A stretch of 44,427 nt of DNA from Xenococcaceae cyanobacterium (GTDB lineage Bacteria; Cyanobacteriota; Cyanobacteriia; Cyanobacteriales; JBFRWF01), in the NCBI GenBank assembly GCA_051439465.1, contig JBFRWF010000102.1, positions 1-44,427 of the forward strand, given 5' to 3'. Of this stretch, positions 18,870 to 44,427 are shown piece by piece. Within the stretch, counting starts at the first letter, position 1. Each line of letters begins with the position of its first letter. The notes below the pieces were generated by a model. It saw only the letters and a program-made list of their open reading frames with translations, was not told the DNA's origin and did not search any database. The position numbers and the translations under genes are program-made.

Positions 18870-19002
18870 GGCGAACTTCAAAAGTTAGGGAACTCTTAAC
18901 AGGCAACGGAGAACAGTGAAGGGGAGGAGATTAATTAAATGATTTGTTCGCTTAGTAAATCTCTCCCTTTCTCCCTGCTCAGAAGCTCCCCTGCTCAATA
19001 TC

Positions 19003-19089
19003 TGTTCCCCGTTCCCTGTTCCCTGTTCCCTGTTCCCTGTTCCCTACTTCCCTCAAAAAAGGGGTAGTTAACCCAGATTTGGTATGACT
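19003..19089. repeat. ~88-bp dispersed element, copy 1: (GTTCCCT)n heptamer array + ccctcaaaaaaggggtagttaacccagatttggtatgact. On the minus strand it reads as a hairpin + T-run (terminator-like) directly after the S1 gene stop
   Basis: Near-identical to 30075-30162. The last two bases of the element contribute to the TAG stop of the S1-domain gene. The minus-strand reading gggttaactacccctttttt resembles an intrinsic terminator. Confidence 0.75.
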
Positions 19090-19990
19090 ATTCAGAAAGC
19101 TTCTCTTTTGCTTTCTGGACACGTTCGGAAGCGGTTGCCATCACCTCATCCATTTTCTCCAATATCTCTCCTGGATAATTTTCCAAAACCTTGGTAGATA
19201 GAGAAAGGCGATTTTTGTACTCGTCGATGTCAACAATCATCACCTTAATCTGCTGTCCGATTTGAAACAGGGTCGTTAGAGAATCCACATGGGAGCCACT
19301 CACCTGTTTGATGTGCAGTAAACCTGTGACCCCATCCAAATCGACAAACACACCGTAAGGCTTAATACTGACCACCTTACCTTCCATGAGCTGCTCTCTT
19401 TCCAATTTGCTAATGGCAGCGGCGCGAGCAGCTTCTCGCTGGGATAATACCAGTTTGTTGCGCTCAGGATCGACTTCCAAAAAGTTGGCAGTCAGCAATT
19501 GACCAATTAGAGATTCGAGGTCCTCTTTCTCAATCAAGTGCGATCGCGGAATAAAAGCTCGCAACCCCTCTACTTCTCCGATGACTCCTCCTTTATTCGT
19601 AGCTGTCACCCGCATTTGTACTGATTTGCCGCTTTCGGCACTCTCAGTCAGATTATCCCAAGCCTGCTTGATTTCTAGCTGACGCCGTGACAGAGTTACC
19701 TGACCTTCTGCATTCTGTCCGCTAATAATCAGAAAGTCCATCTCTTCTTGTAGCGGCAAAAACTCAGATAAATCTGTCACCCGTTTCAAAGAAGCCTCTC
19801 TGAGGGGAACAAAACCGGGGGACTTACCGCCGATGTCGATATAGGCTCCCTCTGAATCGTATTGAAATACTTTGCCGCGCACTACCTGTCCTTTTTCAAA
19901 CTGGTAGTCATATTGTTCGAGGGCTTGGGCAAAATCATCCATAGAAAAGGGCTGATTATGCTCTTGGGAAGAGGTTGATTCTGAAGTCAT
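19088..19990 (-). CDS. 30S ribosomal protein S1 homolog / S1 RNA-binding-domain protein (cyanobacterial short Rps1-type paralog)
   Basis: Three S1-like OB-fold segments are present (GQVVRGKVFQYDSEGAYIDIGGKSPGFVP; GKSVQMRVTATNKGGVIGEVEGLRAFIPRSHL; GKVVSIKPYGVFVDLDGVTGLLHIKQVS). 300 aa. Confidence 0.8.
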   Translation of the reverse strand: MTSESTSSQEHNQPFSMDDFAQALEQYDYQFEKGQVVRGKVFQYDSEGAYIDIGGKSPGFVPLREASLKRVTDLSEFLPLQEEMDFLIISGQNAEGQVTLSRRQLEIKQAWDNLTESAESGKSVQMRVTATNKGGVIGEVEGLRAFIPRSHLIEKEDLESLIGQLLTANFLEVDPERNKLVLSQREAARAAAISKLEREQLMEGKVVSIKPYGVFVDLDGVTGLLHIKQVSGSHVDSLTTLFQIGQQIKVMIVDIDEYKNRLSLSTKVLENYPGEILEKMDEVMATASERVQKAKEKLSE

Positions 19991-20101
19991 GACAATTGAG
20001 TAATTGAAAAAAGTTGCTGATTTCTGGCTGAGTCAACCGATTTTGGACTCTTTCCCGGATTTCCGCACAATTTAAGGTTCTTTGCCAGGAAGACTCACCG
20101 A

Positions 20102-20845
20102 CTAATTGAGTGTTTTGCTAAATAAATCTAGCGCTTGCTTCCAAGCATCTTTGGCTGCTACTTTATTGTAACTAGCACGCTGGTCACAGAAGAAACCGTG
20201 ATCTGCTCCTGGATAACGAAAAACCCGGTGGGGGATGTCGTGCTTTTGGAGTGCTGCTTCAATCTCGTCTACCTGTTCGACAGGAATGCTAGCGTCTTCT
20301 AAGCCGAAGAAAGCATAAAGGGTGCCTTTGATGTCTGCTGTTCGCGTCACGGTGGGTGCGCCATCGCCGGGACTCCAGGTGGTAATTCCTGCGCCGTAGA
20401 AAGAAGCTGTGGCTTTGATGGACTCTAGGGTAGCCGCTAGATAGGAAACATGACCGCCAAAGCAAAAACCAATGCAGCCAACACCATCTTGCTTTACTTG
20501 GGGTAAGCTGTGCAGGTAATCAATTGCTCCTTGGATGTCGCTGAGTAGTTCTGAAGCGTTGGTTTTGTTTTTGTATTCTTTGCCAATTTTGATATCTTCT
20601 GCGGTGTAGCCAGCTTCAAAACCAGGAACTTGGCGCTGATAAATTGCCGGGGCGATCGCCACATAACCTTCCCTGGCAAATCGTCGCGTCACATCCCGAA
20701 TATGGTCATTAACACCAAAGATTTCCTGAATAACAACAACACCGGAAAAGGGACCTTCTCCCTTTGGGGTTGCCAGATAAGCGTCAATGGCTAAATCCCC
20801 GTTACTAACTTGAACCTGCTCTGTCTGGATCTCCAACACTGCCAT
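20102..20845 (-). CDS. Dienelactone hydrolase family protein (carboxymethylenebutenolidase-like alpha/beta hydrolase)
   Basis: The DLH fold is evident: GVVVIQEIFGVNDHIRDVTRRFAREGYVAIAP, nucleophile elbow GCIGFCFGG, C-terminal YPGADHGF. Confidence 0.85.
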   Translation of the reverse strand: MAVLEIQTEQVQVSNGDLAIDAYLATPKGEGPFSGVVVIQEIFGVNDHIRDVTRRFAREGYVAIAPAIYQRQVPGFEAGYTAEDIKIGKEYKNKTNASELLSDIQGAIDYLHSLPQVKQDGVGCIGFCFGGHVSYLAATLESIKATASFYGAGITTWSPGDGAPTVTRTADIKGTLYAFFGLEDASIPVEQVDEIEAALQKHDIPHRVFRYPGADHGFFCDQRASYNKVAAKDAWKQALDLFSKTLN

Positions 20846-20939
20846 ATTGATCTGTACTTCGAATCGCTACCTTTTGATTTTAAGGGCATTGGGTGAGATA
20901 AAATGGCGCTCATAGCAGTCTTCCGTCGGCTTTGGTAAA

Positions 20940-21923
20940 ATGCTTCAGTTCCAGATTCAGCCAGACAGTGAAATTCCCGTATCAAAGCAACTGTTTGACC
21001 AAATTCAGTTTGCGATCGCCTCTCGGCAATATCCCCCTGGCCATCGGTTGCCCAGTACGCGGCAATTAGCAATGATCACTGGTTTACACCGCAATACCAT
21101 TAGCAAGGTGTATCAGCAACTCGAAGAAATTGGACTGGTGGAGTCCCTGGCAGGATCGGGCATCTACGTCAGAGCACAAGGTCACGAAGGCGGTACTCAA
21201 GTTGGCTCCCCCATTTTCGAGCAGTATCCCGAAGCTAACAAGCTCGTAAAAAAGAGTTTAGATGAACTGCTAGTGCAAGGATTTACTCTCAGTCAGGCAA
21301 GGGAGTTGTTTCTCTCAGAAATTGACTGGCGCTTGCGCTGTAATGCGCGGGTGCTGGTGACGGTTCCTGCCAAAGACATTGGTGCTGGGGAGTTGATGGT
21401 CAAGGAACTGGAGCAATCCCTGGGTATTCCCGTGCAACTGATACCCCTCGAAGAACTAGGGCAAGTGCTAGAGAAAACCCAATCCGGCACAGTGGTTACC
21501 AGCCGTTACCATATTCGTAAAGCAGAAGCGATCGCCGCCCCGAATTCTGTTCGGGTGATTCCGGTTGATATCTATGACTACGGCAAAGAATTAGAAATTG
21601 TTAAAAGGCTGCCGAAGAATAGCTGTTTGGGTATCGTCAGTCTCAGTGCTGGCATTCTCGGAGTAGCAGAAATCATCATTCATAGTGTGTGTGGGGATGG
21701 CCTACTGGTAATGACTGCCCAGGTAAGTGACACCTATAAACTGAATGCCTTGGTTCGCTCTGCTCAGACAATCATCAGCGATCGAGCGAGTTATCCTCTT
21801 GTGAAAAAGGCAGTCTCAGCCGCCAGAGACGATCTTATTCGTTATCCAGAGCTGATTTGCAGCGACAATTATATCGGGGAAAAATCAATTAATCTGCTCA
21901 AACGAGAGCTCGGTTTGGGTTGA
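20940..21923 (+). CDS. GntR-family transcriptional regulator with a C-terminal effector/substrate-binding-like domain
   Basis: N-terminal winged HTH typical of GntR (RLPSTRQLAMITGLHRNTISKVYQQLEEIGLVESLAGSGIYV). It is divergent from the dienelactone hydrolase gene (94-bp gap). Confidence 0.75.
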   Translation: MLQFQIQPDSEIPVSKQLFDQIQFAIASRQYPPGHRLPSTRQLAMITGLHRNTISKVYQQLEEIGLVESLAGSGIYVRAQGHEGGTQVGSPIFEQYPEANKLVKKSLDELLVQGFTLSQARELFLSEIDWRLRCNARVLVTVPAKDIGAGELMVKELEQSLGIPVQLIPLEELGQVLEKTQSGTVVTSRYHIRKAEAIAAPNSVRVIPVDIYDYGKELEIVKRLPKNSCLGIVSLSAGILGVAEIIIHSVCGDGLLVMTAQVSDTYKLNALVRSAQTIISDRASYPLVKKAVSAARDDLIRYPELICSDNYIGEKSINLLKRELGLG

Positions 21924-22653
21924 GCAAAAATTCGCATATCCAACAAATGAGGAACGAAAAATAACCATTTTCAGCTCTCCCCCGCTCCCTGCTCCCTGCT
22001 CCCTTGCTTGCCTCAATCAGAATTTCCCGATTACTGGACCGATGCTCTAGGGGGATTTAATTTGAGCGAACGGTGAGTTCGAGATCGCCAGACTTTTTCC
22101 CGTCTTCATCCCGTTCCCGATCACATCAGCGATCGCCCCCCCCCTGAACGGTTACGAATCAGGAGAAGTGGAAGTGATCCCTCCAGCTTGCTTCTTTTCG
22201 GAAGATAAGACTCTTTATCCGAAGATAAGTGTTGACCACGCTTAAGTAGCTCAATGCCTGAAATCTATTAGCAATAAGAGCTACTGGCTCTTCATGGTCT
22301 TCATAAAGAAAAATTCTTAACTTCTTTCTTAAGTTCCTAAACTTAGGTTGTTCAGAAAAGGTTGTCCTGGCAAACTGGCTTAGTAGAAGCTTTAAACTCA
22401 AATCCAATTAAACCTAATGACCCAAAGCTATGAGAAGTATCACTTGGGTGTGTCTGCTTTCGTCAATTAACGAAATTGTTTGGAGGCGATCGCCACCTCT
22501 ACCTCTTCGAGGTGTTATCTAGTCAAGTTAATGGTTTGAACTGCAGTAAAAAAATGCGGAATCTTAACAAGTTCGCCTGTAGGTTAGTTTAAGTTGATGA
22601 AAAAAGATTGAGACTGTTGTGATAATGTACTGACCTATAAACCTTGGAAAAGT

Positions 22654-24321
22654 ATGACTAAGTCACCTGATGCACCTAATACAGCCGAGAATTTTAAGAA
22701 GTCCTTCTCGGTTCTACTGAAGGCTCGGTATCCATACCTTTATATTTCAACCTGGGAAGAAGAGCGAGTCCTGGCATTAATCCAGGAAGTGGTCAGAACT
22801 GCGGCTCTCATTCGCACGCCCCGCAAGCTATTTACCTGGAGCGTCACTGAAGGGATTGTTGAAAATGGGCAGCGTAATAATCAAAAGACCGATCCCTTTA
22901 AAATCCTTGATTTTATTGATGCTCATCAAGAGGCATCTGTGTTTGTGCTCAAAGACTTTCACATTTATCTAGGTACGCGACAAGTTGCTGTGAGAGAGAG
23001 TTTGACTGAACCCTCCCTCATAATTCGTAAACTCAGAGATCTCGTTCCCAATCTCACTAAGAGTAACAAACCCAAAAATGTGGTGTTTGTTTCACCCTCT
23101 TTGGTATTACCTGCTGACCTAGAAAAAGATATCACTATCGTAGACTTTGATTTACCGAGTTTCCCAGAAATCCAACAGAAGCTGCAGGAAATCATTGACA
23201 CAAACCGTCAAGGAGGCCGGATTGTTATCAAACTGAATCCTGAGGAGGAGGAACGTTTAGCTAAGGCTGCAACAGGCTTGACATTGCAAGAAGCAGAAAA
23301 TGCGTTTGCCCGTGCGATGGCTGAAGATGGTCGATTAGATAACCAATCCGTTGGGCGGATTTTGCAAGAAAAACGCCAGATCATCAAAAAAATGGAGATT
23401 CTTGAGTTTATCCCACCGGAATTGACAATGCAGGATGTTGGTGGGCTAGAAAATCTCAAAAACTGGTTTAGGAAGCGCGAGAGGGTTTGGTTGGGGGCAG
23501 CACAACGCTATGGTTTATCAGCTCCTAAGGGAGTATTAATTACAGGGGTACCCGGTTGTGGAAAAAGCTTAATTGCTAAAGCAATCAGCACAATGTGGCA
23601 GTTGCCATTGCTCCGGCTTGATGTCGGTCGAATTTTTGGCGGCTTAGTAGGGAGTAGTGAAGAGAATATGCGTCGGGCAATTAAGACTGCAGAAGCCACA
23701 GCTCCTTCTATCTTATGGATTGACGAAATTGAGAAAGGGTTTAGTGGTGATGGGCGTGGAGATAGTGGCACATCAATGCGAGTGTTTGGTACCTTCCTGA
23801 CATGGATGCAGGAGAAAACTAAGCCTGTGTTTGTGGTGGCAACGGCTAATAAGATTCATGCCCTTCCTCCCGAATTTCTACGTAAGGGGCGGTTTGACGA
23901 AATCTTCTTTGTGGATTTGCCTACTCGCAAGGAACGTATCGAGATTCTTAGACTGCATATTACCAAGCGGGTTGATCCAACAATGATGGAAGGATTTCAA
24001 CTAACACAGCAGGTACTTGAGTATTTAGCCAAGTCTACTGAAGGGTTTATTGGTGCAGAACTGGAGCAAGTCGTAGTAGCAGGGCTATTTGAAGCATTTT
24101 CTGAAGGCCGAGGTCTACGTATTGAAGACTTTGTCAAAGCCGTTAAAAATATGGTGCCCCTTTCTGTAACTCAAGTTGAAGCAATTCGGCACATTCGAGA
24201 ATGGGCCAATGAACGTGCTGTGGCGGCAACTCCTAAGGAAGACCGGATTGAGTATGCTCAGTCCACAGAATCTAAAGCAGATGTCAAGGCAACGCGAGGA
24301 GGACGGGCTGTAGATTTCTGA
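22654..24321 (+). CDS. AAA+ ATPase (CDC48/FtsH-like ATPase module with a distinct N-terminal domain). Resembles the stress-induced cyanobacterial slr0374-type ATPase
   Basis: Walker [16 protein letters not shown], Walker [10 protein letters not shown], second region of homology [28 protein letters not shown]. It is followed by two small conserved ORFs, as in the slr0373-0374-0376 arrangement. The latter comparison is from memory and is not verified. Confidence 0.8.
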
Positions 24322-26447: not shown

Positions 26448-28862
26448 ATGGTAGAGCATGAGGATATCTGGATTGAGGCGGCACTGAATCTAACTTCATC
26501 TGGCCTCGCAGATCTTTTGAAAAAGCTTCCACCTTCTAGGATGCAGAAGCTAGCAATAGAGGCTGCTAGCGGAAATAACTTACAAATGCGGGTTTATGGA
26601 TTGACGCTGGTTAGCCAAGATCATGCTGTGGGAGGAGATCCTCAAATAGGGCTGTTCCTGGCCAAATTGGGTATGCGGCTTTGTATGCAGTGTTTTGAAC
26701 GGCAGGGTTCTGGTCCCGCTGATACCTTCGTGTTTGGGGTGAGTCAATTTGCTTTGAATGCTAATAGGAGCTGGCATAGATTAGATGAGCATCAGCAACA
26801 GTTGGCAGTTATTGATGATACCTTAGCTTGGTTATCCCAACGGAAAGCTAAGGCAGTCTATTCCAAGGATCTAAAATTTGCCAGAGTCGGGGTTCTGATT
26901 GAGCTAGACAGACCGGAAGAAGCGTACGAAGCACTCAATGATGCCCGTAATGAATTCGATCGGACTCGCCAAGAACTTGATAAAGAGGATCGTGAAACAT
27001 TGAAGAAGCATTTTTTGGATCCAATTCTGGATGAGCGTATCAGTGAACGGTTGCTTCCTGCTACTAAACTTAAAGATCGTGATGATACAAACAAGAAAGC
27101 CAATGACAGTCAGCGTAATATGCTCCGAACTGTACTCGGCAATCTTTCGTCCATAGAATCAAAATTTGAGAACCTTTTCGAATCCCTGCAACAACAGCTT
27201 AGCAATGAGCCAACACCGGTATCTCCTACAGAAACCATCAAACAAGCAAACCTTTCCTACGATAGGATTAGCCAATTTTTAGAGGGTCAAGCAGGCGGCT
27301 CTGGCCCTGAGTATCGTCTGAAATCCACGATTCAGAGGGTATCAGCTGTTTTAGCTGATGAGCAGCAAGGACATGATCTACAGACGCTACGAGAATCACA
27401 ACAAACCCTTGAAAGTGTCCGTAAGGAGGCTGGGTCTCAGCAATTTTCTGATATTGTTGAGCAGACCCTATGGCCCCTGTACCTTTGTTATAAGCGTCTT
27501 GGTAAGCGTAAATCTGGTTTTGAAGTTCTCCAAGAAATTCGCCGTTGTGTCCGAGAACGTCGCAAGCAAATATTGGATCCGTTGAAACGGGCATATGTTG
27601 CGCAGCAATACCCTTACCTTTATTTTGCGCTTTGTGAATACTTAATCCAAGATGACAATCCCACTGAACTGCTCTCTGTAATCGAAGAGGCCAAGGGACG
27701 GGTCCTGGCTGATATGGTGGAAAGCCATGCTGCACAGGCACAGATTCCTACATTACCAGGGCAGGCAGCTGACTGGTTACCAGATCATATGAAAAGTCTC
27801 GGTGCCCATTATGTAACCTTCCTGGTTGATGCGGATAAAACCTATGCAGTTTTGCTTGGACGGGATGCCAGCATACATATGGCTGAATTGCCTATCGGGG
27901 AAGCTCAGCTTCACAGGCTTAGACACTGTCTCGATCCATCACTTTGGGGTAAGCGGATTGATTGGTTTGACACTTATCCTACAGATGTTGTGCAGCAGCT
28001 CTCTCCCTTAACGAGTTGGCTCCAGCCAATGGTTCACAGTGGATTACTCCGTCAGGGCGATCATATCTGTTATGCCCCGGATGGGATATTACATCTCGTG
28101 CCGCTCCACTACGTTGATTTCTGTGGGAAACCGCTAATAGAGATGTTCTCATTGTCACGAACCCACTGTGCTTTGCTCTTGTGGGAGTCTACTCGTGAAC
28201 CTGTCAGAAGCCTTGACCATAGTGTGGCCGTTAAAGTGCCAACGATCGATGAGTTTAAAGAGCAACCTGAGAAGGTGGCAAAGCTTGCCCTTGCACCAAA
28301 ATGGCTGGCTGAACATAGAAGAGCCGAGATTTTAGAAGACACAAATGCTGACCTATCAGCTTTAGCAAACATGACACTAAGCAGCAGCATCATCCACTTT
28401 GCAACCCATGGTACGTTTACTCCTGGACAGAATCCTTTTTATCACTCCGGTCTTCTGCTAGCCATCAATGGAGAGTTTCCTAACAAAAATGGATCCAGGG
28501 AATTGCTATCACCAGAGCGGGTAATGGAACAAGGAAATAAGTTTAATTTTCGTGGTTCGCACGTTACGCTTCAGGCCTGTGTTTCTGGTTTGTCTGAAGA
28601 GGGGGCTGGAGGTGATGCCCTTGGCCTTGAATGGAGTCTTCTGATAGCAGGAGCAAGTAGTATCCTCTCTTCCCATTGGGATGTGTCAGTTCATGCCTCA
28701 TCTGACTTCAGTGTGCGGTTTTATGAAAACTGGCTTGAGCAGGGGATGAGTCGCGCCAGTGCTTGGCGAAACGCTTGCTTAAGCCTGATGAGTGACGATC
28801 CTTTTCAAGGAGAAAACGTAGACAAGTGGGCAGCATTTAGCCTGGCTGGTGACTGGCGTTAA
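26448..28862 (+). CDS. CHAT-domain protein (caspase-like His/Cys protease fold) with a large alpha-helical N-terminal region
   Basis: The C-terminal ~250 aa have the CHAT catalytic dyad context (SIIHFATHGTF ... HVTLQACVSGLSEEG ... LLIAGASSILSSHWDVS). The N-terminal ~550 aa are helical with no named domain. Confidence 0.8.
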   Translation: MVEHEDIWIEAALNLTSSGLADLLKKLPPSRMQKLAIEAASGNNLQMRVYGLTLVSQDHAVGGDPQIGLFLAKLGMRLCMQCFERQGSGPADTFVFGVSQFALNANRSWHRLDEHQQQLAVIDDTLAWLSQRKAKAVYSKDLKFARVGVLIELDRPEEAYEALNDARNEFDRTRQELDKEDRETLKKHFLDPILDERISERLLPATKLKDRDDTNKKANDSQRNMLRTVLGNLSSIESKFENLFESLQQQLSNEPTPVSPTETIKQANLSYDRISQFLEGQAGGSGPEYRLKSTIQRVSAVLADEQQGHDLQTLRESQQTLESVRKEAGSQQFSDIVEQTLWPLYLCYKRLGKRKSGFEVLQEIRRCVRERRKQILDPLKRAYVAQQYPYLYFALCEYLIQDDNPTELLSVIEEAKGRVLADMVESHAAQAQIPTLPGQAADWLPDHMKSLGAHYVTFLVDADKTYAVLLGRDASIHMAELPIGEAQLHRLRHCLDPSLWGKRIDWFDTYPTDVVQQLSPLTSWLQPMVHSGLLRQGDHICYAPDGILHLVPLHYVDFCGKPLIEMFSLSRTHCALLLWESTREPVRSLDHSVAVKVPTIDEFKEQPEKVAKLALAPKWLAEHRRAEILEDTNADLSALANMTLSSSIIHFATHGTFTPGQNPFYHSGLLLAINGEFPNKNGSRELLSPERVMEQGNKFNFRGSHVTLQACVSGLSEEGAGGDALGLEWSLLIAGASSILSSHWDVSVHASSDFSVRFYENWLEQGMSRASAWRNACLSLMSDDPFQGENVDKWAAFSLAGDWR

Positions 28863-32434: not shown

Positions 32435-33130
32435 ATGGCGCGAGGCGATCAAATTTACGTCTTCAGAGAGTTGCTTAACCTTCAGGGGGTTTACGAGCAT
32501 CATGGCATTGACTGTGGAAATGGTACCGTCATCCACTACCGCAAGCCTAGTGAAACGATTGAGCGGACGTCTCTGGCTACCTTTGCTAAAGGCAACAAGG
32601 TCTATTTGAAGCAATACTCGGTGGGATTTTGTTTTATCCCGAATGTAGTGATTCATCGGGCAGAAAGTCGATTAGGCGAACGCAAATATAACCTGCTGTT
32701 CAACAACTGCGAGCATTTTGCCAACTGGTGCAAAACGGGGATCTGCGATAGTAAGCAAGTCAGAAATTTTATCCCGGCGATTAGTAAGCTGAATATCCAT
32801 AATTTGTCCGAACCGCTCAAACAAGCACTTCAGGGAGCAGACCCCAATAATGCTCAGCAGTTGTTGAATCAGGCTTTAGCTGATATTAAAGTAGTTTGGG
32901 AGAACATTCAGCCCCAGTACAAAGATGCCCTTAAACAGATCGATATCTGGCATCGGGTTGCTTTGCAAGCTGTTAAACAAGACCGAGAAGACTTGGCCCG
33001 CGAAGCGCTAAGGCGAAAGTTAAGCTATAAGCAACGTGCTACTGACTTGCAAGGTAAGCTGGAACAGCTAGCAACGATGACAGAAACTCTGATCCGCAAC
33101 AGCACAAACTTGCAATCCATTTCACTTTAA
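32435..33130 (+). CDS. LRAT / NlpC-P60 superfamily papain-like domain protein with a C-terminal coiled-coil region
   Basis: H-box (HHGID...VIHY) and the LRAT-family catalytic Cys context NNCEHFANWCKTG. The C-terminal half is helical/charged. Confidence 0.65.
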   Translation: MARGDQIYVFRELLNLQGVYEHHGIDCGNGTVIHYRKPSETIERTSLATFAKGNKVYLKQYSVGFCFIPNVVIHRAESRLGERKYNLLFNNCEHFANWCKTGICDSKQVRNFIPAISKLNIHNLSEPLKQALQGADPNNAQQLLNQALADIKVVWENIQPQYKDALKQIDIWHRVALQAVKQDREDLAREALRRKLSYKQRATDLQGKLEQLATMTETLIRNSTNLQSISL

Positions 33131-33149: not shown

Positions 33150-33737
33150 ATGGTAAAGACTAAAGCAGTGGCTAATTTCGTCGCCGTCAGCGACCTCTCA
33201 AAGCCGGTGGAAGAGCAAGAAGGGATTTTACTGGAAGTAGAAGGTCGCGGTGGAGACACTGAGAAAAATCGTGCCAAGGCATTGTCAATAGTTAACCAGA
33301 TGTGGGAGAATGGGGAGATAGAGGCAGATAAATTCCCTGATGGCATCACTCTAGACAACATTTTCTACGTGCCGACCCAGAAACCTCAACTAAAATCTCC
33401 TCAATCCTTAAATTCAGAAGAAGAACTTTTACCTGTCGTACAGGGAGCGCAGGAAGTCATTCAACTCACGAAACTCCAGGTTGAAGTGCAAGAAGCGGCC
33501 CAGGAAGCTGCCCCCTACATACCAATTATTGAAGCAGTCCTAGACAGAACCCGTCCTTTAACTTTAGAGGAGAAGGATTTAGCTAAAGAGAAGAAGTATG
33601 GCAAGATTATCGAACGAATTGGGGCGGCGATCGCGAATCAGGAGCAGTATAGAGAAACTTGCACGGGAAACGGAAAGCTAATCCTCAATGCAATTGCTTG
33701 GCAGTTAAACCAAACAGGTGTTGCCGAAAACTTGTGA
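33150..33737 (+). CDS. Hypothetical protein (195 aa), acidic/helical. Begins 20 bp after the LRAT-domain gene
   Basis: ORF with plausible RBS (AAGGAAGGAAG ... ATG). No recognised domain. Confidence 0.4.
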   Translation: MVKTKAVANFVAVSDLSKPVEEQEGILLEVEGRGGDTEKNRAKALSIVNQMWENGEIEADKFPDGITLDNIFYVPTQKPQLKSPQSLNSEEELLPVVQGAQEVIQLTKLQVEVQEAAQEAAPYIPIIEAVLDRTRPLTLEEKDLAKEKKYGKIIERIGAAIANQEQYRETCTGNGKLILNAIAWQLNQTGVAENL

Positions 33738-33793
33738 CCAAAACTCAGCCACCATTTAATTTAGGCATGGTTCAAAACAGAGTAACACGCTTA

Positions 33794-33860
33794 GAGGGGG
33801 AGAGAGGGAGAGGGGGAGAGGGGGAGAGGGGGAGATGGGGAGATGGGGAGATGGGGAGAC
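33794..33860. repeat. Heptamer/octamer STRR array (GGGGAGA/GGGGAGAT)n
   Basis: gggggagagggggagagggggagatggggagatggggagatggggagac read directly. Confidence 0.85.
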
Positions 33861-33985
33861 ACCGGACTCCGGGACAAGGTTAAAAGTTCCCCAGACTAAC
33901 ACCCCTATTGTGTTACCTTGCCACGAACCATATTGAACCATGCCGAAATTTTTAATCAATTTAAATTTGTTTGAAGACGAAAAGA

Positions 33986-34116
33986 ATAAGTAGTCGGACA
34001 TAAATTTTGATGACTGTGTTAACTTTTATAAAATGATCAAAACCCTATTGCGAAGCAAGAGACATCGGTTTTTACATTTCTTAATACAGTACTGTTGACT
34101 TATGTCTGACTACTTA
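33986..34116. mobile_element. MITE-like non-autonomous element (~131 bp) with 16-17-bp terminal inverted repeats (taagtagtcggacataa / ttatgtctgactactta)
   Basis: The TIRs are a 16/17 match. Internal sequence shares gactgtgttaac and tttacatttcttaa modules with the repeats at 4170-4222 and 15722-15840. No coding capacity. Confidence 0.65.
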
Positions 34117-34220
34117 GTATAATCAACTGGAGTAGTGGGGATAGTCTGTGCTACCACTGGCGGTGGCGACAGTCCATCAAACCAACAGCGAATTTTTCAA
34201 ATACAGGCAAATAATTAACA

Positions 34221-34262
34221 GTGACCAGTAACCGGTAACTGGTAACTGGTCACTGGTAACTA
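34221..34262. repeat. Heptamer STRR array (GGTAACT/GGTCACT)n
   Basis: ccagtaaccggtaactggtaactggtcactggtaac. The same heptamer family is expanded in-frame inside the downstream Rep gene. Confidence 0.8.
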
Positions 34263-34697
34263 AATGGTGGAAAACACCACTTGGAAAGTTATTGCCATGA
34301 CTCAGGTTTTCTAGAGCGAAGAAGGCTTCCGGGCAGGAGACAGGAGGGAATAGAATTTCATCCTTTTTCGTCAATAGCCATCTTCATTTTGATTGGTCAA
34401 AAATTGAGTTCAGTTATCGGGATAAGGATTAGGGTTCATAATGTGCTCAAAGCTTTATTCGGACTGCCTGGGAGCGGACTGCGGACTGCCTTATCCTAGC
34501 CAGCTATCTTCCCTAACCTACCAGGTTGTGTGGAAAATCCAGCCTAAGACCAACCATTACCCTAGTCCCTACTGCCTAGTCCCTAACCCCTCCTCAAACA
34601 TCGCTGGAGAGCTGTTAGCTCAGCTATTCAACAAGCGTACAAATAAGAAAAGCTGGTTGATTCCCTCTAGTGGCGAGGACGGCTCCAAGCTGATCGA

Positions 34698-34741
34698 TTA
34701 GCTGGATTCCCGGCTGAATTAGCTGGATTTCCGGCTGAATC
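34698..34741. repeat. Two tandem 21-22-bp direct repeats (ttagctggattcccggctgaa / ttagctggatttccggctgaat), iteron-like, ~160 bp upstream of the Rep gene
   Basis: Read directly. Position and spacing are consistent with Rep-binding iterons, but binding is not demonstrated. Confidence 0.5.
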
Positions 34742-34898
34742 AAAGGATTTAAGGTGAAACTCAAATCCAAACACCAAAGAGGCACAACCATGCCTTAAAA
34801 CCAAACGACACCTTAATTATCGTTCAGCTTTTCTACTAAAGCGCCACAAAAAGGGAAATCGCCAGAAGTAAAAATTTACTCCTGGAGAGGAGAGTACC

Positions 34899-37800
34899 AT
34901 GAAAAATTTCAGTAGTCCAGAACAAAAGTTAGAACAGCAGCGCTCAACCTCAAGTCATAAGTCACCACAAGAGCGTGTAGATGAATGGATTTCTGGTAGC
35001 GCGGTAAGTCCAGAACTGACCGAAAAATGGCTAGAGCAGCAGTCCGACAAAAAGGAGATCGCCCGCCTGCTAGCCTGGAAATATTACAGTCACACTCCTG
35101 GCTGGTACGTGCGCTCTTGCGATCCACACACGGGAATGCGTGGGGATTTTGGACAATTCAAGCCAGACTCACCGCTTCAATTCCCCGACTCTGACAAGCC
35201 CTGTAAATACTTCACTTTCCCCAAAGGCAGGGGGACAGAGGCAATCTACAGCGTGATGACGCTTAACGAGTGGATCTCAATCAGCGAGCGGGTTGGGGTA
35301 GACATAGAAACCAAGGACATTGATGAATCCCGCGATGATTTAGGTTTCTGGCGTTGGGTAATGAATCACCCTGAGATTCCCATAATCATTACTGAGGGAG
35401 TTAAGAAACAGGGTTGTCTGCTAACTTGGGGGTGGGTGGCGATCGCCCTTACCGGAGTATGGAACGGACAGCAAAAGCGCAAACTGCACCCGTCCCTTAA
35501 ACCTTTCATTGTGCCTGGACGCGTAGTTTATGCTTGCTTTGATGCCGATGTGGTAGTCAAGGTCGAGGTAGAACGCGCCCTCAAGGTTTTTGGGCAGGTC
35601 GTCCGGCGCGAAGGTGCCTCAGTTTTTATTATTAACTGGAATTTAGAACTGGGCAAGGGCTGCGATGACTTGATTGTCAATGAAGGCTATAATTCATTTG
35701 AAGAGGCTCTCCATAATGCCACCCCTTATAGTGAATGGCTCAAGTCTCTCAAAACTGAACAGCCCAAGAAAAAAGGCTCACTGGTAGCTGCTGATGTTAT
35801 TGGTGGCAGCGGCGGTGGTAATAACAACGGTAATGGTGGTGGTGGGAACAATGGCGGTGATGGCTCTGGTGGCGATCGCTCCCGAGAGAACAACGAGAAA
35901 AAGAATCCAGAATGGCGCTATAAAAATGTTGCCGACGCACTAGAACTGCCTTTTTCTGATTGCGTTACTGCTGGAAGCTTCGATGGGTATGTCTACCGAG
36001 AAATATTTGGGGCCGGAACTGAAAATTGGGCAGCGATCGACACTGCCTTTTACCACAACACAGAGCAGGGCTACTGGCAGCATCAGGAAGATAAATTCAT
36101 TCACAAACTGATCTGCGATGCCTCCCAAAAGGCTTACAAGCTCAAATCCTCGAAATTAGAGGGCTGGTGGGCTACCTACCCCTACGAAACAAACAGCTCG
36201 TCCGAGTCTGCCTTTAAGTTTGTTCGCAAGCGCTTGGAGTTAGATAACTTACCGTCCAATGTACATTTGAGGGCATTCAATAATTGTACCGTGGATATGA
36301 GGACGGGTCAAACCATGCTCCACGACCCCGCCCATTTCCTAACTAGCCAGGTTCCTTACGATTACTACCCTAACCGTCCATGTCCTGAGAATTTCTACAA
36401 CTTTATTTGTAGTTCCTTCGGGGAAGATTTACTCTGTGTCATCCGGGCGTTTACCTCAATGTTTCTAGATCCGACGGCTCCCTATGGGCGATTTCCTCAT
36501 CTGTTTGGGCCATCAGGTTCAGGTAAGGGAGTGATGGGGCGATTGTGGAGTTCTATGTATGGAACCGTAGGCTCGGCTTCCCTGGCCAGTTTCGAGGAGC
36601 TGGCATCTGCAGAAGGACGGCATCAGTACCTCACTGGGAAATCTATCTGCGGCATTCCCGATGTCGGCGGTTATGTCAAGGGACTACGCGCTTTCTACGA
36701 GCTTATAGACAATGGTGAGATGTCGGGCCGGGCACTGTTTAACCCTACTGGCTATCAGAAGCTTTGGAATATGCGTTTCTGGGTGGCTTCTGTTGACCAC
36801 CTGCAAATTGAGAACGCCGGGGATGGTTGGGCTCGCCGCGCATACCCCATTCCTACTAAGGGCAAGCCAGATAATGTTGACCCCAACTTGAGGGTGAAGT
36901 TAGAAGCAGAGATAGGAGACATTATTTCATGGGCTTTGGCTATGCCCAGAGAAGAGCGCGATCGCATTCTTTTGGGTGAGCCCACCAACTCTCGAGTCAT
37001 CAATGCCATCACTGATGCCGCTCTCTACGGTGACAGTACTAAGAGCTTTGTCGATCTGTGCCTGCGCCCTTCTGACAATCCTGGCAATGTTCCCAATCAC
37101 ATGCTGCACTCCTGGTATGTCGCCTACTGCGACAAGCACGGCTATACACCGATGGGGATGTCCAAGTTCATCTCCCACCTCAAAACCATCCTGCCGAAAA
37201 ACCATGTCCAGCGCGGTTGGTCGCCAATGACTAATGGCAAGCGCTCACAGGTTTCGGCTCACTGGGAATATATTGTATCTCTTCGGGGGGCTCTTGTAAC
37301 TATAAACAATGGTGCTGACAACGGCTATCAGGGTTCAGCTAATCAAGAGCCCGAGTGGAAGTGCATGAAATCTAAATGTGTGGAAGGAGGGTTATTTGAG
37401 TTTGAGGATTTTTGGAATCCACCAGAACCACCTGGGCCACCTCAACCACCTCAGCCACCTCAGCCACCTGAACCTGATGATGGTGGTCCCGGCGGTGGTG
37501 GTCCTGATAATAACCCTCCGACTGCCGATCCTGCTCCAGATTCGGATTCAAAATCGCCAGAACCACCTAGCAGTAAGGGTGTGCAGGGTGTACATGCTGT
37601 ACAGGGCAGCTCAGAAAATCCCGAATCGCTGAAACAACGCAGTGGTGCGGGTGTGCAGGGTGTGCAGGGTGGATCGCACAGAGATCCGGACTTTGAAAAA
37701 ATATCAGTAGCTGTTGTAGAAAAAAATGAGGTGGCGCAAACAGTAGAAAGGGTAGAAAGCCCCCTGTCCACCCCTGTACAGTTACCAGTTACCAGTTATC

Positions 37801-38948
37801 AGTTGCCAGTTGGCAGTAATCAGTTAGCAGTTGACAGTAATCAGTTAGCAGTTGAAAAGTCAGATAACGAACCTTCTTCAGTTACCAGTTACCAGTTACC
37901 AGTTACCAGTGAGACTCCCGACTCTGACGGAGTTCCGAATTCAGAGAAGGTAGATTCAACTGTGTCCCACGGTGACAAGACTTCAGATAACCAACCTTCT
38001 TCAGTTACCAGTGACCAGTTATCAGTGACCAGTGAGACTCCCGACTCTGACGGAGTTGCTCATTCAGAGTTGGTAGACCCCACTAAAAACCAGGTAACTG
38101 GTAACTGTTCACTGGTAACTGAAGAGGTAACTGGTAACTGTTCACTGGTCACTGAAAAGGTAACTGGTAACTGTTCACTGGTCACTGAAAAAGAGCTGGT
38201 AACTGATTACTCCACTTATCCGCATCTAACCAGCAATGATGTCCGAGCTTGTCGAAACCGGGCTAGTCGGTGCAAAAATCAGATGCTTGCCTGTACTAAC
38301 CGAGATGAGCTGGCAGAATTTCGAGCTAGTGCTGGATTCTCTCAGAGTGAGATTGATTGGGTTTGGGAAAGGCTAACTGACAGTGAAAAGTTTGGCGTAC
38401 ATAAAGCGGTTAAGCAAGAGCAGCTAACTTTACCGGGTTTTGAGAAATCTGAAAATGGTAACTGGGAACAGGTCACTGAAGAGGTAACGGGTAACTGGGA
38501 ACTGGTAACTGAAACTGAGCAAACTGCTCCGGTGTCAGAGTCAACTGAAAATGCCTCAACTGACCCAGAACAGATTGAAAGTACCGACGAGATATTCTCA
38601 TGGAACGAGGTAATTGAAGATATGAACCAGCACCTGAAGCTACTTTGTTGGAGAAAGGCTGACGGTTCTGCTTATCTCCAGCACAAGTACAACTTGAATT
38701 GCTGCCCTAATTTAAGCGAGTCAGAAATGTCTGAGTTCTATAAATTCCAGACTGAACGCTTGGCGGGATATAAGGTAGGCGACCGCGCGATTGTTGAGAA
38801 TTATGACCCAAAACTAAATGGTCGGGTAGCAGAGGTGGTATCAGTCGAACCTGGCAACATCATTAAAGTTCAGTTTGATCACAACCGCCGAAAGATGCAC
38901 ATAGAAATTGCACTTTACGTAACACTCTTCTACGGAAAAACTCAATGA
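34899..38948 (+). CDS. Plasmid-type replication protein: N-terminal TOPRIM-like (DUF3854) domain plus P4-family primase C-terminal NTPase domain (cyanobacterial CyRepA-like), with a ~400-aa STRR-derived low-complexity insert
   Basis: TOPRIM-like acidic motifs IIITEGVKKQGCLLTWGWVAIALTGVWNG and VVYACFDADVV. Walker A FGPSGSGKGVMGRLW in a P4-primase-like C-terminal domain. Low-complexity blocks follow (GGSGGGNNNGNGGGGNNGGDGSGG; PPEPPGPPQPPQPPQPPEP; VTSYQLPVTSYQLPV; VTGNCSLVTEEVTGNCSLVTEK) before a conserved C-terminal ~120 aa. RBS GGAGAGGAGAG. Confidence 0.75.
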   Translation: MKNFSSPEQKLEQQRSTSSHKSPQERVDEWISGSAVSPELTEKWLEQQSDKKEIARLLAWKYYSHTPGWYVRSCDPHTGMRGDFGQFKPDSPLQFPDSDKPCKYFTFPKGRGTEAIYSVMTLNEWISISERVGVDIETKDIDESRDDLGFWRWVMNHPEIPIIITEGVKKQGCLLTWGWVAIALTGVWNGQQKRKLHPSLKPFIVPGRVVYACFDADVVVKVEVERALKVFGQVVRREGASVFIINWNLELGKGCDDLIVNEGYNSFEEALHNATPYSEWLKSLKTEQPKKKGSLVAADVIGGSGGGNNNGNGGGGNNGGDGSGGDRSRENNEKKNPEWRYKNVADALELPFSDCVTAGSFDGYVYREIFGAGTENWAAIDTAFYHNTEQGYWQHQEDKFIHKLICDASQKAYKLKSSKLEGWWATYPYETNSSSESAFKFVRKRLELDNLPSNVHLRAFNNCTVDMRTGQTMLHDPAHFLTSQVPYDYYPNRPCPENFYNFICSSFGEDLLCVIRAFTSMFLDPTAPYGRFPHLFGPSGSGKGVMGRLWSSMYGTVGSASLASFEELASAEGRHQYLTGKSICGIPDVGGYVKGLRAFYELIDNGEMSGRALFNPTGYQKLWNMRFWVASVDHLQIENAGDGWARRAYPIPTKGKPDNVDPNLRVKLEAEIGDIISWALAMPREERDRILLGEPTNSRVINAITDAALYGDSTKSFVDLCLRPSDNPGNVPNHMLHSWYVAYCDKHGYTPMGMSKFISHLKTILPKNHVQRGWSPMTNGKRSQVSAHWEYIVSLRGALVTINNGADNGYQGSANQEPEWKCMKSKCVEGGLFEFEDFWNPPEPPGPPQPPQPPQPPEPDDGGPGGGGPDNNPPTADPAPDSDSKSPEPPSSKGVQGVHAVQGSSENPESLKQRSGAGVQGVQGGSHRDPDFEKISVAVVEKNEVAQTVERVESPLSTPVQLPVTSYQLPVGSNQLAVDSNQLAVEKSDNEPSSVTSYQLPVTSETPDSDGVPNSEKVDSTVSHGDKTSDNQPSSVTSDQLSVTSETPDSDGVAHSELVDPTKNQVTGNCSLVTEEVTGNCSLVTEKVTGNCSLVTEKELVTDYSTYPHLTSNDVRACRNRASRCKNQMLACTNRDELAEFRASAGFSQSEIDWVWERLTDSEKFGVHKAVKQEQLTLPGFEKSENGNWEQVTEEVTGNWELVTETEQTAPVSESTENASTDPEQIESTDEIFSWNEVIEDMNQHLKLLCWRKADGSAYLQHKYNLNCCPNLSESEMSEFYKFQTERLAGYKVGDRAIVENYDPKLNGRVAEVVSVEPGNIIKVQFDHNRRKMHIEIALYVTLFYGKTQ

Positions 38949-38964
38949 AACCCGATCAATCATT

Positions 38965-40299
38965 ATGCTTAGACAACTCGATTTGTGCTCAGGAGTCGGA
39001 GCAGGATTCCCCCTTGCAGGGTTCAAACTCGGAGGTTTTGAACTGCTCGGTCTCTGCGAAATTGACCCCTACTGCCAAGACATCCTCGGTAAACGATTCC
39101 CCGAAGTTACAATCTTCAAAGATGTCCAAGAACTTAAAGAAGGCGGAGTCTACAAATCAGGAGAAATCGATATTATCACAGCCAGCCCACCTTGCCAGCC
39201 CTTCTCAGTCCAAGGGAAACGGCTCGGAGCTGACGACGAAAGAGACTGCATACCCGCAGTCATGGAAGCGATCGCAAGCATTAAGCCTAGATTCTTTGCA
39301 ATTGAGCAAGTGCCAGGGCTGCTTACGTGCCCTTTCAAACCCGGATACGGTTCAGGCTCCTACTTCAAAATCCTACTCGGAGCCATTTTCGAGTGCGGGT
39401 ATGGGGTGGAATGGCAAAATATTGGATCAGGAAACTTTTCCTCTCCCTTCCCTAGAAGAAGGTTACTGCTGGTTGGCGTCTCCAACAGCGTTAAGCTCGA
39501 CTGGGAACTCCCGACCCCCTGGGCTGAGCAAGTTAGAAAGTCAGTTGAAGGAAATGGTAGTCCTAAAATCAGGGGAGTGCTTGAATCCGAGGTGGCTAGA
39601 AGTTTGGTTGGGTATGCCGCTGAACTGGCTCAACCCATTGGAATTACGTCCGGCAATGGAGTTGTTAGAAGACAACGTGAAGCAGCAGGAAATTCTCTCG
39701 ACCCAAGAGTTGCTGCGATCGCACTCCAAAGAATCATCTATCTTAATTCGGAAGTGACCAAATACACATCTCAATCCAAAGACAAGCTCCGCCACGACAC
39801 CGACGAATCTCATTCACCTGAACCTGAAAATAATGGTCGGTCACCTTCGGTGCGCCTTCGGCGAGCGCAAGATGATGATTGGCTTGATAATTCTCCAACT
39901 TCTGCTGAATCTAATTCTAGCCCACTGACTGGATCACCTCAACATCAGGAAAGTAAGGAGCGGTCACCTTCGGTGCGCCTACGGCGAGCGCCTGAACTGC
40001 TCCAAGTTAATCCGCACTCACTCAAGCCGCACCCGCGCAATCGGTCGATCTATGGTAAAGACGAAGATATCTCAGACCTGGTAGAGCAGATCCGGCGCAC
40101 TGCATGGATCAAGCCACTTGTGGTGAATAAACAGCACCAGATTATTAGTGGTCATAGGCGCTGGAAAGCAGCACTTGCGCTGGGACTGGAAACTGTTCCT
40201 GTGGAGGTAAGGGAGTTTGAGTCTGAGCTAGATGAACTTGAAGCCTTACTGCTAGAGAACCAATACCGGGAATCGTTCAGCGTTACCAAATGCCTATAA
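38965..40299 (+). CDS. Fusion protein: compact DNA (cytosine-5)-methyltransferase domain (N-terminal ~270 aa) plus a ParB/Srx-like nuclease/NTPase N-terminal domain (C-terminal ~100 aa), joined by a linker with a duplicated ERSPSVRLRRA motif
   Basis: C5-MTase motifs I (DLCSGVGAGF), IV (ASPPCQPFS), VI (IEQVPG), IX-like (RGVLESEVARSLVGY), X (AAGNSLDPRVAAIALQRI). ParB signature in NPHSLKPHPRNRSIYG...LVEQIRRTAWIKPLVVNKQHQIISGHRRWKAALALGLETVPVEV (GxRR box). Confidence 0.75.
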   Translation: MLRQLDLCSGVGAGFPLAGFKLGGFELLGLCEIDPYCQDILGKRFPEVTIFKDVQELKEGGVYKSGEIDIITASPPCQPFSVQGKRLGADDERDCIPAVMEAIASIKPRFFAIEQVPGLLTCPFKPGYGSGSYFKILLGAIFECGYGVEWQNIGSGNFSSPFPRRRLLLVGVSNSVKLDWELPTPWAEQVRKSVEGNGSPKIRGVLESEVARSLVGYAAELAQPIGITSGNGVVRRQREAAGNSLDPRVAAIALQRIIYLNSEVTKYTSQSKDKLRHDTDESHSPEPENNGRSPSVRLRRAQDDDWLDNSPTSAESNSSPLTGSPQHQESKERSPSVRLRRAPELLQVNPHSLKPHPRNRSIYGKDEDISDLVEQIRRTAWIKPLVVNKQHQIISGHRRWKAALALGLETVPVEVREFESELDELEALLLENQYRESFSVTKCL

Positions 40300-40329
40300 A
40301 CTAATCTCAAAATTGCGTAATGGAGGTCA

Positions 40330-40845
40330 ATGATGACTAGAGGTAGACCAGCAAAAGTCAAAAAAGAAGATGTAATAGCAGCTTGCGACCAACTTGTTCA
40401 AGAGGGACAGAATGTTACTGTAAAAAATGTCCTGGGGATGGTTGGAGGCTCAGCGAGAGAAGTTTCCCCGATAGTTAGAAAATATAAGGCATCGGCTGGA
40501 ATACCAGAAGCTCTCGAAGATATCGAGAATGATGATAATAATGGTGCTCTATCTGTAACAGAACCAGAAGAGATTGCCGACGTTCAGAAAGAAACAAGTC
40601 ACTCAACATCAATTAATCCACGACAAACCATGTCGGCTCAGGCAAAGGAGCAAGCGCAGTTAGAAGCAGCCCAGCATACTTTGGCCAAGAATTACTTCAT
40701 CGCCACTCAAGATTACGAAACACCTGGGTTAAAAGAGCAGGTTAATCAGGGACTAGAAGAGATATATAAACGTGCTAATGCTGAAATGATGGATAACCTG
40801 TTCCCAAAGGATCTACAGGAAAAACTAAGGACTCCCAAGACGTAA
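40330..40845 (+). CDS. KfrA-N-like DNA-binding protein (plasmid-associated)
   Basis: N-terminus MMTRGRPAKVKKEDVIAACDQLVQEGQNVTVKNVLGMVGGSAREVSPIVRKYK resembles the KfrA N-terminal HTH domain (GRP..VT...V..AAD.L...G..PTV..VR..LGGGS...I.P.L). An acidic/helical tail follows. Confidence 0.5.
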   Translation: MMTRGRPAKVKKEDVIAACDQLVQEGQNVTVKNVLGMVGGSAREVSPIVRKYKASAGIPEALEDIENDDNNGALSVTEPEEIADVQKETSHSTSINPRQTMSAQAKEQAQLEAAQHTLAKNYFIATQDYETPGLKEQVNQGLEEIYKRANAEMMDNLFPKDLQEKLRTPKT

Positions 40846-41419
40846 CTACTCCTACCAAGACGGCAGAGAAACAAAAGCGAAGGTTGATAAGATCTTGGCT
40901 AGGCTGCGTACTGGGAACAGCTACAGTACTCGCGTTAACGGGAATGAAAAATATCCAGCAGCTAGCTCTCGTATCCCTAGGAGCCGGAAGTATAAACTTT
41001 ATAGTCTGCATAACAGGAAAAGATCAATGAAGGTAGAGGAGGATTATCAAGCAAGACCACTTTCCAATAGCCCGAAGAAACTTGGTGCGGTTCATCGGCA
41101 TTAGACAAAGGCGGCATAGGTCGCTCAAACAACGGGCCCGTAGCTACAAAAACCTCACCGTAGCCGAGCGATCGCACTAATTGGCCTTCTTATAACAGGC
41201 GTGTATCCCCAAGGCATCTGGCTGCGGAATCCACCGGGCAGTGTGCATACCCCCTTCAGTGAGTCGGGCTGTCTGATCTATGTCAAAACAGGGCATTTGT
41301 CTACAGCTAATGACTAGGGGGACGATGACATCGGTCTATCTCTACTGACTGACTCAGCTTGGGCGCAAACGGAGCCTACCAAGACCAAATCAAACTCAAT
41401 TGAGATCAGGAGACTCACG

Positions 41420-44367: not shown

Positions 44368-44419
44368 GCGATCGCGCTTCTCCTATCCCAGGGCGATCGC
44401 GCTTCTCCTATCTCAGGGC
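44368..44419. repeat. Tandem 26-bp direct repeat x2, each containing a HIP1 octamer (gcgatcgcgcttctcctatc[c/t]caggg)
   Basis: Read directly at the window end. Confidence 0.8.
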
Positions 44420-44427
44420 GGTCTCGG

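Follow-up and report, generated by a model that had tools for sequence, protein, structure and literature searches.

Primase-helicases of P4 (the alpha protein) and of the Staphylococcus aureus pathogenicity islands (SaPIs) self-load at the origin of their own element, and both SaPIs and P4 also live integrated in the chromosome. In cyanobacteria, primase and helicase are joined in one polypeptide in CyRepA1 (Slr7037 of pSYSA and the Rep of pAQ1) and CyRepA2 (ORF B of pCC5.2), which are established by experiment as plasmid Reps, are typical of cyanobacterial plasmids and combine a DUF3854 domain with a helicase of the DEXDc type (PMC10079941). CyRepA homologues have also been reported on the chromosomes of 80 out of 145 cyanobacteria (PMC10899382). 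Here, we have analyzed one entire contig of 44,427 bp (the window) from a metagenome-assembled genome (MAG) of a Xenococcaceae cyanobacterium, in which an earlier note had pointed to a plasmid-derived replication and partition module integrated in the chromosome. Between host genes ending at 33737 and starting at 41420 lies a mobile-type patch (33738-41419 at most, i.e. no longer than 7.7 kb) with three open reading frames (ORFs) on the forward strand, encoding a 1349-aa primase-helicase (34899-38948), referred to below as Rep, a 444-aa C5 methylase-ParB_N fusion (38965-40299) and a 171-aa KfrA_N-type DNA-binding protein (40330-40845). The patch is probably the remnant of an integrated plasmid-like or phage-like element, lying in what is most likely chromosomal DNA, and not a working replicon. 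Its Rep is predicted to be an intact primase-helicase of the P4-alpha/SaPI type, representing a class that would run parallel to CyRepA.

The primase-helicase and its relatives

The Rep ORF is intact and, read along the forward strand, carries the DUF3854/TOPRIM primase core at residues 150-264 (35346-35690; PF12965, 122 bits, E = 1.8e-35), D5_N at residues 377-501 (36027-36401; 48.7 bits against a cut-off of 22.4, E = 1.3e-12), the Walker A motif GPSGSGKG of a superfamily 3 (SF3) helicase at residues 537-544 (36507-36530) and, after the helicase, a Pox_D5-type domain at residues 731-777 (37089-37229; 26.2 bits against a cut-off of 21.4, E = 1.1e-5), which is a candidate for the DNA-binding part. 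These Pfam matches bear out the DUF3854 plus P4-type primase architecture that the earlier note had proposed. An alignment of 34 sequences shows no variation at the TOPRIM residues E166-G167 and D215-x-D217, and the Walker A residues G537-G544, the Walker B residue D588 and R646/R647 are likewise invariant in alignments with 25 and 33 relatives. Judged by these residues, the protein appears to have both the catalytic Glu and DxD of a TOPRIM primase and the D5_N domain with Walker A and B of an SF3 helicase.

A structure was predicted for residues 1-860 of Rep with a mean pLDDT (predicted local distance difference test) of 69, at which the N-terminal domain reached about 90 and part of the helicase core was poorly modelled. 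Its best fold matches in the PDB were the SaPI5 primase-helicase (7OLA), E5 of monkeypox virus, D5 of vaccinia virus and PrimPol of African swine fever virus (ASFV), with E-values of 1e-5 to 1e-3; the catalytic core of Escherichia coli DnaG (3B39/1EQN) was matched as well (E of about 1e-3, template modelling (TM) score on the target 0.47-0.48). TM scores are low overall because the model is multi-domain, and the fold matches are accordingly taken as support for the domain assignments, no more. Searching the PDB with the Rep sequence returned one spurious low-complexity match only, and the region matches "DNA primase" families of phages in PHROGs. The model TIGR01613 (P4 family, C-terminal) reached 43 bits against a cut-off of 108.7, with positions 6-304 of its 304 aligned; being sub-threshold though nearly the whole model is aligned, Rep is a distant relative of this family and not a member by the curated score. 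Rep shares with P4 alpha, the SaPI Pri-Rep (7OLA) and D5/E5 an arrangement in which a primase is linked to D5_N plus an SF3 helicase of the hexameric kind and a small domain closes the C-terminus, yet its sequence identity to these proteins is only 11-16%. Moreover, D5/E5 and the ASFV PrimPol use a primase of the archaeo-eukaryotic type, whereas that of Rep is TOPRIM, and unlike in P4 and SaPI systems, no iteron-type origin, integrase or packaging genes were found in the window.

The earlier note had also called the protein CyRepA-like, a description that suits its N-terminus and fails for its helicase. BLASTP against Slr7037 aligned only residues 29-268 of Rep, at 30% identity, which is the DUF3854 part common to both. 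The CyRepA1 model NF042913 spans residues 317-907 of Slr7037, i.e. its helicase half; with a cut-off of 200 bits, it recovered the controls Slr7037 and pAQ1 Rep at 595.8 and 407.1 bits, respectively, and gave no match at E<=0.01 on the window Rep and none on its plasmid relatives. The helicase half of Slr7037 gives matches to AAA_30, AAA_19, ResIII and Herpes_ori_bp, instead of which the window Rep has D5_N and SF3. As far as can be told from these domains, Rep would belong to a parallel class, which shares the primase module of CyRepA and has a different helicase.

The closest relatives of Rep have the same domain order and are 53-59% identical to it over roughly the first 1000 residues. One of them, WP_015179985, is encoded on the Crinalium epipsammum plasmid pCRI9333.02, which is MOBV-typed and mobilizable; there, genes for CopG and VapBC adjoin it, and an integrase copy stands on either side. 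In fact, the Rep region of this plasmid is bracketed by inverted pairs of an integrase and a helix-turn-helix (HTH) gene (1276-2724 and 15283-16514) with identical protein accessions, which suggests an invertible or composite segment. Another relative belongs to a contig of 34.6 kb that also encodes a Mob_Pre relaxase and a type I restriction-modification (R-M) system, and a third to one of 44.8 kb encoding an integrase and a large terminase, the terminase scoring above both Pfam cut-offs. Among the neighbours of five Rep relatives, no window ORF apart from Rep has a match. No relative closer than 59% to Rep, or 64% to the KfrA-like protein, was found among 5.8 billion proteins, and scans of the GTDB species genomes, IMG/VR and the JGI metagenomes gave no close relative of Rep; a look-up of the exact Rep sequence returned no entry. 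A metagenome contig of 44.5 kb carries two inverted Rep copies of 912 and 1167 aa (10001-12739 and 18630-22133), and small ORFs mirrored between them point to a large inverted duplication. Some matches pair DUF3854 with VapE, others combine it with DUF5906 and D5_N, and D5_N also occurs together with primase domains of other types; evidently, the modules for primase and helicase are shuffled. To our knowledge, no primase-helicase of this DUF3854-D5_N-SF3 class, whether from a cyanobacterial plasmid or a phage-like element, has yet been assayed for initiator function.

Compared to the pCRI9333.02-type proteins, the window Rep has no zinc ribbon, a longer and repeat-invaded C-terminus and no neighbour genes in common. 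Its alignment to the relatives begins only at about their residue 58, so that the N-terminal CxxC...CxxC zinc ribbon, nearly invariant among 25 relatives, is absent, and the missing ribbon is not encoded upstream of Rep in any frame. At the other end lies a low-complexity linker (37426-38510, forward strand), and the C-terminal third of the protein is lengthened by repeats that keep the frame (heptanucleotides and units of 21/33 bp) and belong to the GGTAACT family also present in the upstream spacer. Within it, at 37779-38510, the in-frame CAGTTAC/GGTAACT repeats are translated into peptide repeats of 7 and 11 residues (VTSYQLP and VTGNCSLVTEE).

The methylase-ParB_N fusion and the KfrA-like protein

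According to a recent survey, proteins that combine the ParB fold with a methylase are enriched in prophages and lie without ParA neighbours, and anti-defence roles were suggested for them (PMC12704722). The second ORF of the patch resembles these fusions in joining the N-terminal (CTPase-fold) domain of ParB to a DNA methylase in one polypeptide, with no ParA neighbour (DNA_methylase, E = 1.2e-29; ParB_N, E = 2.5e-12). Here, the earlier note had rightly recognized a C5 methyltransferase fused to a ParB-like domain. The described fusions carry mostly N6/N4 methylases or Methyltransf_23 (PMC12704722), whereas the window protein has as partner a C5 enzyme, compact with its roughly 265 aa, and carries the ParB domain at the C-terminus, unlike the described ones. 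A methylase family with a ParB_N part is held in PHROGs as well (phrog_498). A second protein in which a C5 methylase is combined with this type of ParB is P0236, the only one among 120 listed relatives; its partial methylase resembles, at 50% identity, the 417-aa methylase encoded elsewhere in the window (7663-8916) and not the compact one.

The methyltransferase part covers residues 1-265 (38965-39759, forward strand; PF00145, 104 bits) and scores 103.7 bits with the C5 family model TIGR00675, above its cut-off of 100.65; SPPCQPFS with the catalytic PCQ, DLCSGVGAG and GNSLDP can be read in its translation. Cyanobacterial C5 methylases that stand alone (about 265 aa) share 50-59% identity with it; they are mostly found on plasmid-sized contigs and several named plasmids, with few on chromosomes. 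Members of this family of compact C5 methylases (about 260-280 aa), which is large and widespread in cyanobacteria, are so short that a target-recognition domain would hardly fit. The window protein has no nuclease partner, and PADLOC gave generic methylase matches only, upon which the patch was rejected as part of a known defence system.

The ParB_N domain lies at residues 352-432 (40018-40260, forward strand) and the ORF ends 12 aa later. With the N-terminal portion of ParB-like proteins that are 400-545 aa long, it shares 53-67% identity, and the GHRRW box is kept; these full-length relatives run on, with further domains, for about 300 aa past the end of the window ORF. No remnant of their continuation is found downstream in any frame, and the window protein has neither an HTH nor a dimerisation domain. 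The KfrA-like ORF that follows was considered as the missing part and rejected, having no similarity to it. Moreover, no NTPase of the ParA or ParM type was found among the ORFs scanned, which were those at 30-44 kb plus the other larger ORFs of the contig. The word partition, used for this region in the earlier note, is therefore not upheld, for there is ParB_N alone, with neither a continuation nor a ParA. One of the full-length ParB-like relatives is encoded between a DUF3987 replication protein and an integrase, beside grpE-dnaK (L092, 2-4324), a row of genes that looks like the end of an integrated element. Given the truncated ParB, the lack of ParA and of a nuclease, and the survey of prophage fusions, we read the window protein as a putative orphan methylase for self-protection or anti-restriction, which would not be a centromere-binding partition protein.

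The third ORF matches KfrA_N at 31.5 bits against a Pfam cut-off of 26.1, in agreement with the KfrA-N-like DNA-binding protein of the earlier note, and has no match in NCBIfam or PHROGs. Two relatives were detected, one of 64% identity on a 1.6-kb contig and one of 33% on the Stanieria plasmid pSTA7437.03. Its N-terminal DNA-binding domain is similar to that in KfrA of IncP plasmids, yet the window protein has only 171 aa, and neighbours of the kfrBC or korAB type are absent. On the reverse strand, a 78-aa ORF or conserved stretch of uncertain status (40775-41011) is kept together with the KfrA-like gene on the related 1.6-kb contig.

The upstream spacer and the host DNA around the patch

All the sequence features listed in the earlier note, namely a miniature inverted-repeat transposable element (MITE), tandem arrays, 21-bp repeats and the three ORFs, are present where it had placed them. 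The two tandem copies of a 21-bp unit, 95% alike (34697-34740), end 158 bp before the ATG of the primase-helicase gene and had been taken for iteron-like. An iteron origin comprises several direct repeats, usually three or more, next to an AT-rich region and often with DnaA boxes. In the contig, there is no third copy of the 21-bp repeat, sites resembling DnaA boxes are not enriched (32 against 25 +/- 5 expected), two-copy tandems of a similar kind (15-25 bp) are present at 4087, 9023-9064, 33557-33596 and 44368-44420, and the regions upstream of five Rep relatives have no consistent iteron arrays. An iteron-type origin was rejected owing to the two copies only, the lack of DnaA-box enrichment and the lack of arrays in the relatives. 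The 21-bp repeats are a tandem duplication, beyond which the evidence does not go, though they could serve as a binding site.

The rest of the spacer is likewise occupied by repeats. After the last host gene, an octamer array is found at 33793-33859 (AGAGGGGG, 8.4 units), and since a comparable one lies at 1322-1377 (GGGGAGAC, 7 units), we consider octamer arrays a contig-wide repeat type. It is followed by the MITE-like element of about 131 bp (33986-34117), the terminal inverted repeats (TIRs) of which, at 33988-34003 and 34100-34115, are 16 nt long with 1 mismatch. The terminal motif was matched 7 times along the contig, with 0.27 matches expected. Besides the copy described here, the contig has one more full element (15795-15916) and three solo ends (4205, 10203 and 15758). 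The element is MITE-like, being short and non-coding, bordered by TIRs and present in several copies (2 full ones and 3 solo ends in 44 kb), and its spread over the whole contig makes it a host repeat family that marks no boundary. Its right terminal repeat, together with the flanking bases, forms the best promoter-like site of the region (34095-34123, forward strand; TTGACT-17-TATAAT, 11 of 12 positions), a consensus match only, which is oriented toward the Rep gene. Further downstream are two heptamer arrays, one of GTAACTG (4.9 units, 34228-34261), a unit that recurs in the 3' half of the primase-helicase gene, and another at 34560-34585, as well as an 86-aa forward ORF (34441-34701) without a family match, which is uncertain as a real gene and overlaps the 21-bp repeats with its 3' end. 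On the other side of the patch, the 575-bp spacer before the next host gene has no repeats or arrays.

The contig is most likely chromosomal DNA, a chromid or megaplasmid being the less likely reading. As the window is an entire MAG contig of only 44 kb, this statement is drawn from gene content alone; in the same way, the location in the chromosome claimed by the earlier note agrees with the host genes, while the type of replicon is not directly demonstrable from a whole MAG contig. By Pfam scan, the neighbours of the patch are a Cu/Zn superoxide dismutase (SOD) upstream and a glutathione S-transferase (GST, YfcG-like) downstream. Other host-type genes on the contig are dapL, the product of which (LL-diaminopimelate aminotransferase) scores 608 bits with TIGR03542 at a cut-off of 365, a 300-aa S1-domain protein (S1 paralogue) and, as a further marker of host DNA, a thiamine pyrophosphate enzyme (PRK08322, 877 bits) adjoining a succinic-semialdehyde dehydrogenase (SSADH) at 11531-14725 on the reverse strand, which we take to be the 2-oxoglutarate decarboxylase/SSADH pair (2-OGDC/SSADH) of the tricarboxylic acid cycle bypass. 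Neither dapL nor 2-OGDC/SSADH nor the S1 paralogue has a close homologue on cyanobacterial plasmids in PLSDB, at which the best matches of the S1, dapL, 2-OGDC and SSADH proteins are at most 51% identical and come from archaea or proteobacteria. Orthologues of the GST, with 65-81% identity, lie on cyanobacterial chromosomes of 6-9 Mb; the 80 loci around them have no further window gene in common, except one aldehyde dehydrogenase. A homologue of the 195-aa gene directly upstream of the patch (p195), with 80% identity, was located on a contig of 88 kb; its neighbours there are a CorC-type transporter and elongation factor G, and no Rep lies nearby. Loci around homologues of p195 and SOD have no synteny with the window.

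Scans of the contig for tRNA genes and Rfam families gave no match, its ends do not overlap (checked as a sign of circularity) and megablast of 33.9-41.0 kb against the PLSDB plasmids returned nothing. The highly iterated palindrome HIP1 (GCGATCGC) occurs 40 times in the 44-kb contig, at 0.73 per kb within the patch and 0.93 per kb outside, and host repeats (HIP1, the MITE family and the heptamers) run throughout the patch, which looks compositionally at home among the host DNA. The contig terminus itself is a 25-bp tandem repeat bearing HIP1 (44368-44420).

Several other genes of the window deserve mention. An 899-aa forward ORF (4478-7177) strongly matches every major domain of the major vault protein, with Vault repeats at 232 bits and MVP_shoulder at 178 bits, along with Vault_2, Vault_3 and Vault_4. 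Its product is a bacterial homologue of the protein that forms the shell of eukaryotic vaults, and the NCBIfam scan gave no match for it. In the spacer that follows (7212-7563), a 190-bp unit is repeated 1.9 times with 98% identity before the gene of a second, full-length C5 methylase (7663-8916, reverse strand; 417 aa), matched by the type II R-M methylase model PDLC03326 at 570 bits. An AAA ATPase (22654-24321, forward strand), with a near full-length match to phrog_8638 (477 bits) and IetA-like defence matches, is encoded 2 kb upstream of a CHAT-domain protein (26448-28862, forward strand), and the pair may be a defence or conflict island. Finally, in a single forward ORF at 32435-33130, an LRAT/NlpC-type domain (90 bits) is combined with a helical region resembling PspA/IM30 (29.7 bits, under the cut-off).

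Origin and fate of the patch

An origin from a mobile element is favoured by the relatives of Rep, which are found on mobile DNA, and the flanks of the patch are host genes. As the earlier note had observed, genes of a mobile type lie here between SOD and GST. Each of the three has plasmid homologues. A gene order universally conserved in chromosomes and lacking plasmid counterparts is clearly not what we have found; nor are the three genes found together anywhere else, and we no longer speak of a module. No integrase, as already noted earlier, and no relaxase was detected among the window ORFs scanned, the contig ending 3 kb to the right of GST; there are no att-like direct repeats flanking the patch and no tRNA target. 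The patch is without recognizable means of integration, transfer or partition. Of the integrated plasmid or integrative and conjugative element proposed earlier, the mobile-type genes among host genes remain, and no integrase, att repeat or tRNA accompanies them. These absences, together with the truncated ParB part, are signs of a remnant. The patch has been resident for some time: repeats of the host type (HIP1, MITE and heptamers) are present inside it, copies of the MITE lie to its left and right, and the zinc ribbon of Rep was lost. Stranded replication genes of mobile elements are already known to be common in cyanobacteria, and in this respect the finding is an ordinary one.

Some observations weigh against a remnant. 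With none of the three ORFs interrupted and the catalytic residues preserved, the genes may still function, and the loss of the zinc ribbon is no proof of inactivity, since the working Rep Slr7037 (CyRepA1) is also without it. The contig is only 44 kb long and comes from a MAG, and no origin was identified. Furthermore, no empty site in a related genome was found at the loci of the GST, p195 and SOD homologues, so that the insertion is inferred from gene content.

The contig could instead be part of a large plasmid or chromid, with the region as its working replication and maintenance region, in which Rep would be the initiator, the 21-bp repeats its binding sites, and the ParB_N and KfrA_N proteins would act in maintenance. 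This seems unlikely to us. Such a reading would agree with the intact Rep ORF and its catalytic motifs, the direct repeats 158 bp upstream, the plasmid-borne closest full-length relative and the small size of the contig with no tRNA or rRNA genes; accessory cargo is also ample (the vault protein homologue, the CHAT protein, the AAA ATPase and the methylases), and chromids have by definition core genes on plasmid-type replicons. Yet no close homologue of dapL, 2-OGDC/SSADH or the S1 paralogue is carried by the cyanobacterial plasmids of PLSDB, there is no ParA or ParM, and the ParB part is without its DNA-binding and dimerisation parts. The repeats, moreover, are two copies of a kind of tandem found elsewhere in the contig, the DnaA boxes are not enriched, the contig ends without overlap and chromosomal CyRepA homologues are common (PMC10899382).

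Perhaps the host retains the genes because they serve it, for example as an auxiliary primase-helicase in replication or repair or as an epigenetic or anti-invader methylase, and they are not decaying mobile DNA, though the chances of this are small. The intact ORFs, the host-like HIP1 density and repeat content, the wide distribution of DUF3854 proteins on cyanobacterial chromosomes (PMC10899382) and the several DUF3854 copies on a single 804-kb contig (P0054, P0066 and P0071) would fit. Against this, the orthologous trio was not found elsewhere, the ceiling of 59% (Rep) and 64% (KfrA-like) among the 5.8 billion proteins misfits a conserved function, and the scans of GTDB species genomes and JGI metagenomes gave no close Rep relative. 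An assembly artefact, joining plasmid or phage reads to chromosomal reads at repeats, is very unlikely, for even if MAG contigs are not validated and the left boundary is rich in dispersed repeats of the misjoin-prone kind (a MITE copy, octamer and heptamer arrays), an internal insert needs two misjoins, the right boundary (40846-41419) is without a dispersed repeat, HIP1 density is alike inside and outside the patch and the same heptamer family occurs in the spacer and within the Rep ORF.

A stranded element in the host chromosome is hence the reading that we retain. If active, Rep would be expected from its family to bind an origin, where its hexamer would assemble and unwind the DNA and its TOPRIM domain would lay down primers. 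It is conceivable that a chromosomal Rep of this kind is active and fires a plasmid-type origin within the chromosome, aiding replication that is independent of DnaA, yet we consider this highly improbable here, as nothing supports it beyond the intact ORF. As cited in PMC7198777, an integrated plasmid origin took over chromosome initiation in dnaA-deletion strains of Synechococcus elongatus (Ohbayashi et al. 2016); if true, the firing of such an origin would be a natural counterpart of these strains, and would give a role to the many chromosomal DUF3854 genes (PMC10899382).

For the window itself, the finding matters little, chromosomal DUF3854 genes of the plasmid type having been reported in more than half of the sequenced cyanobacteria. 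The presence of ParB_N on a methylase is no ground for assigning a partition function. Moreover, DUF3854 modules pair with at least two unrelated types of helicase, DEXDc in CyRepA1/2 and D5_N/SF3 in the window, in several plasmids and in phage-like contigs. Naming every DUF3854 protein CyRepA-like therefore hides a separate class of candidate initiators, and this D5_N/SF3 class might serve for new cyanobacterial vectors.

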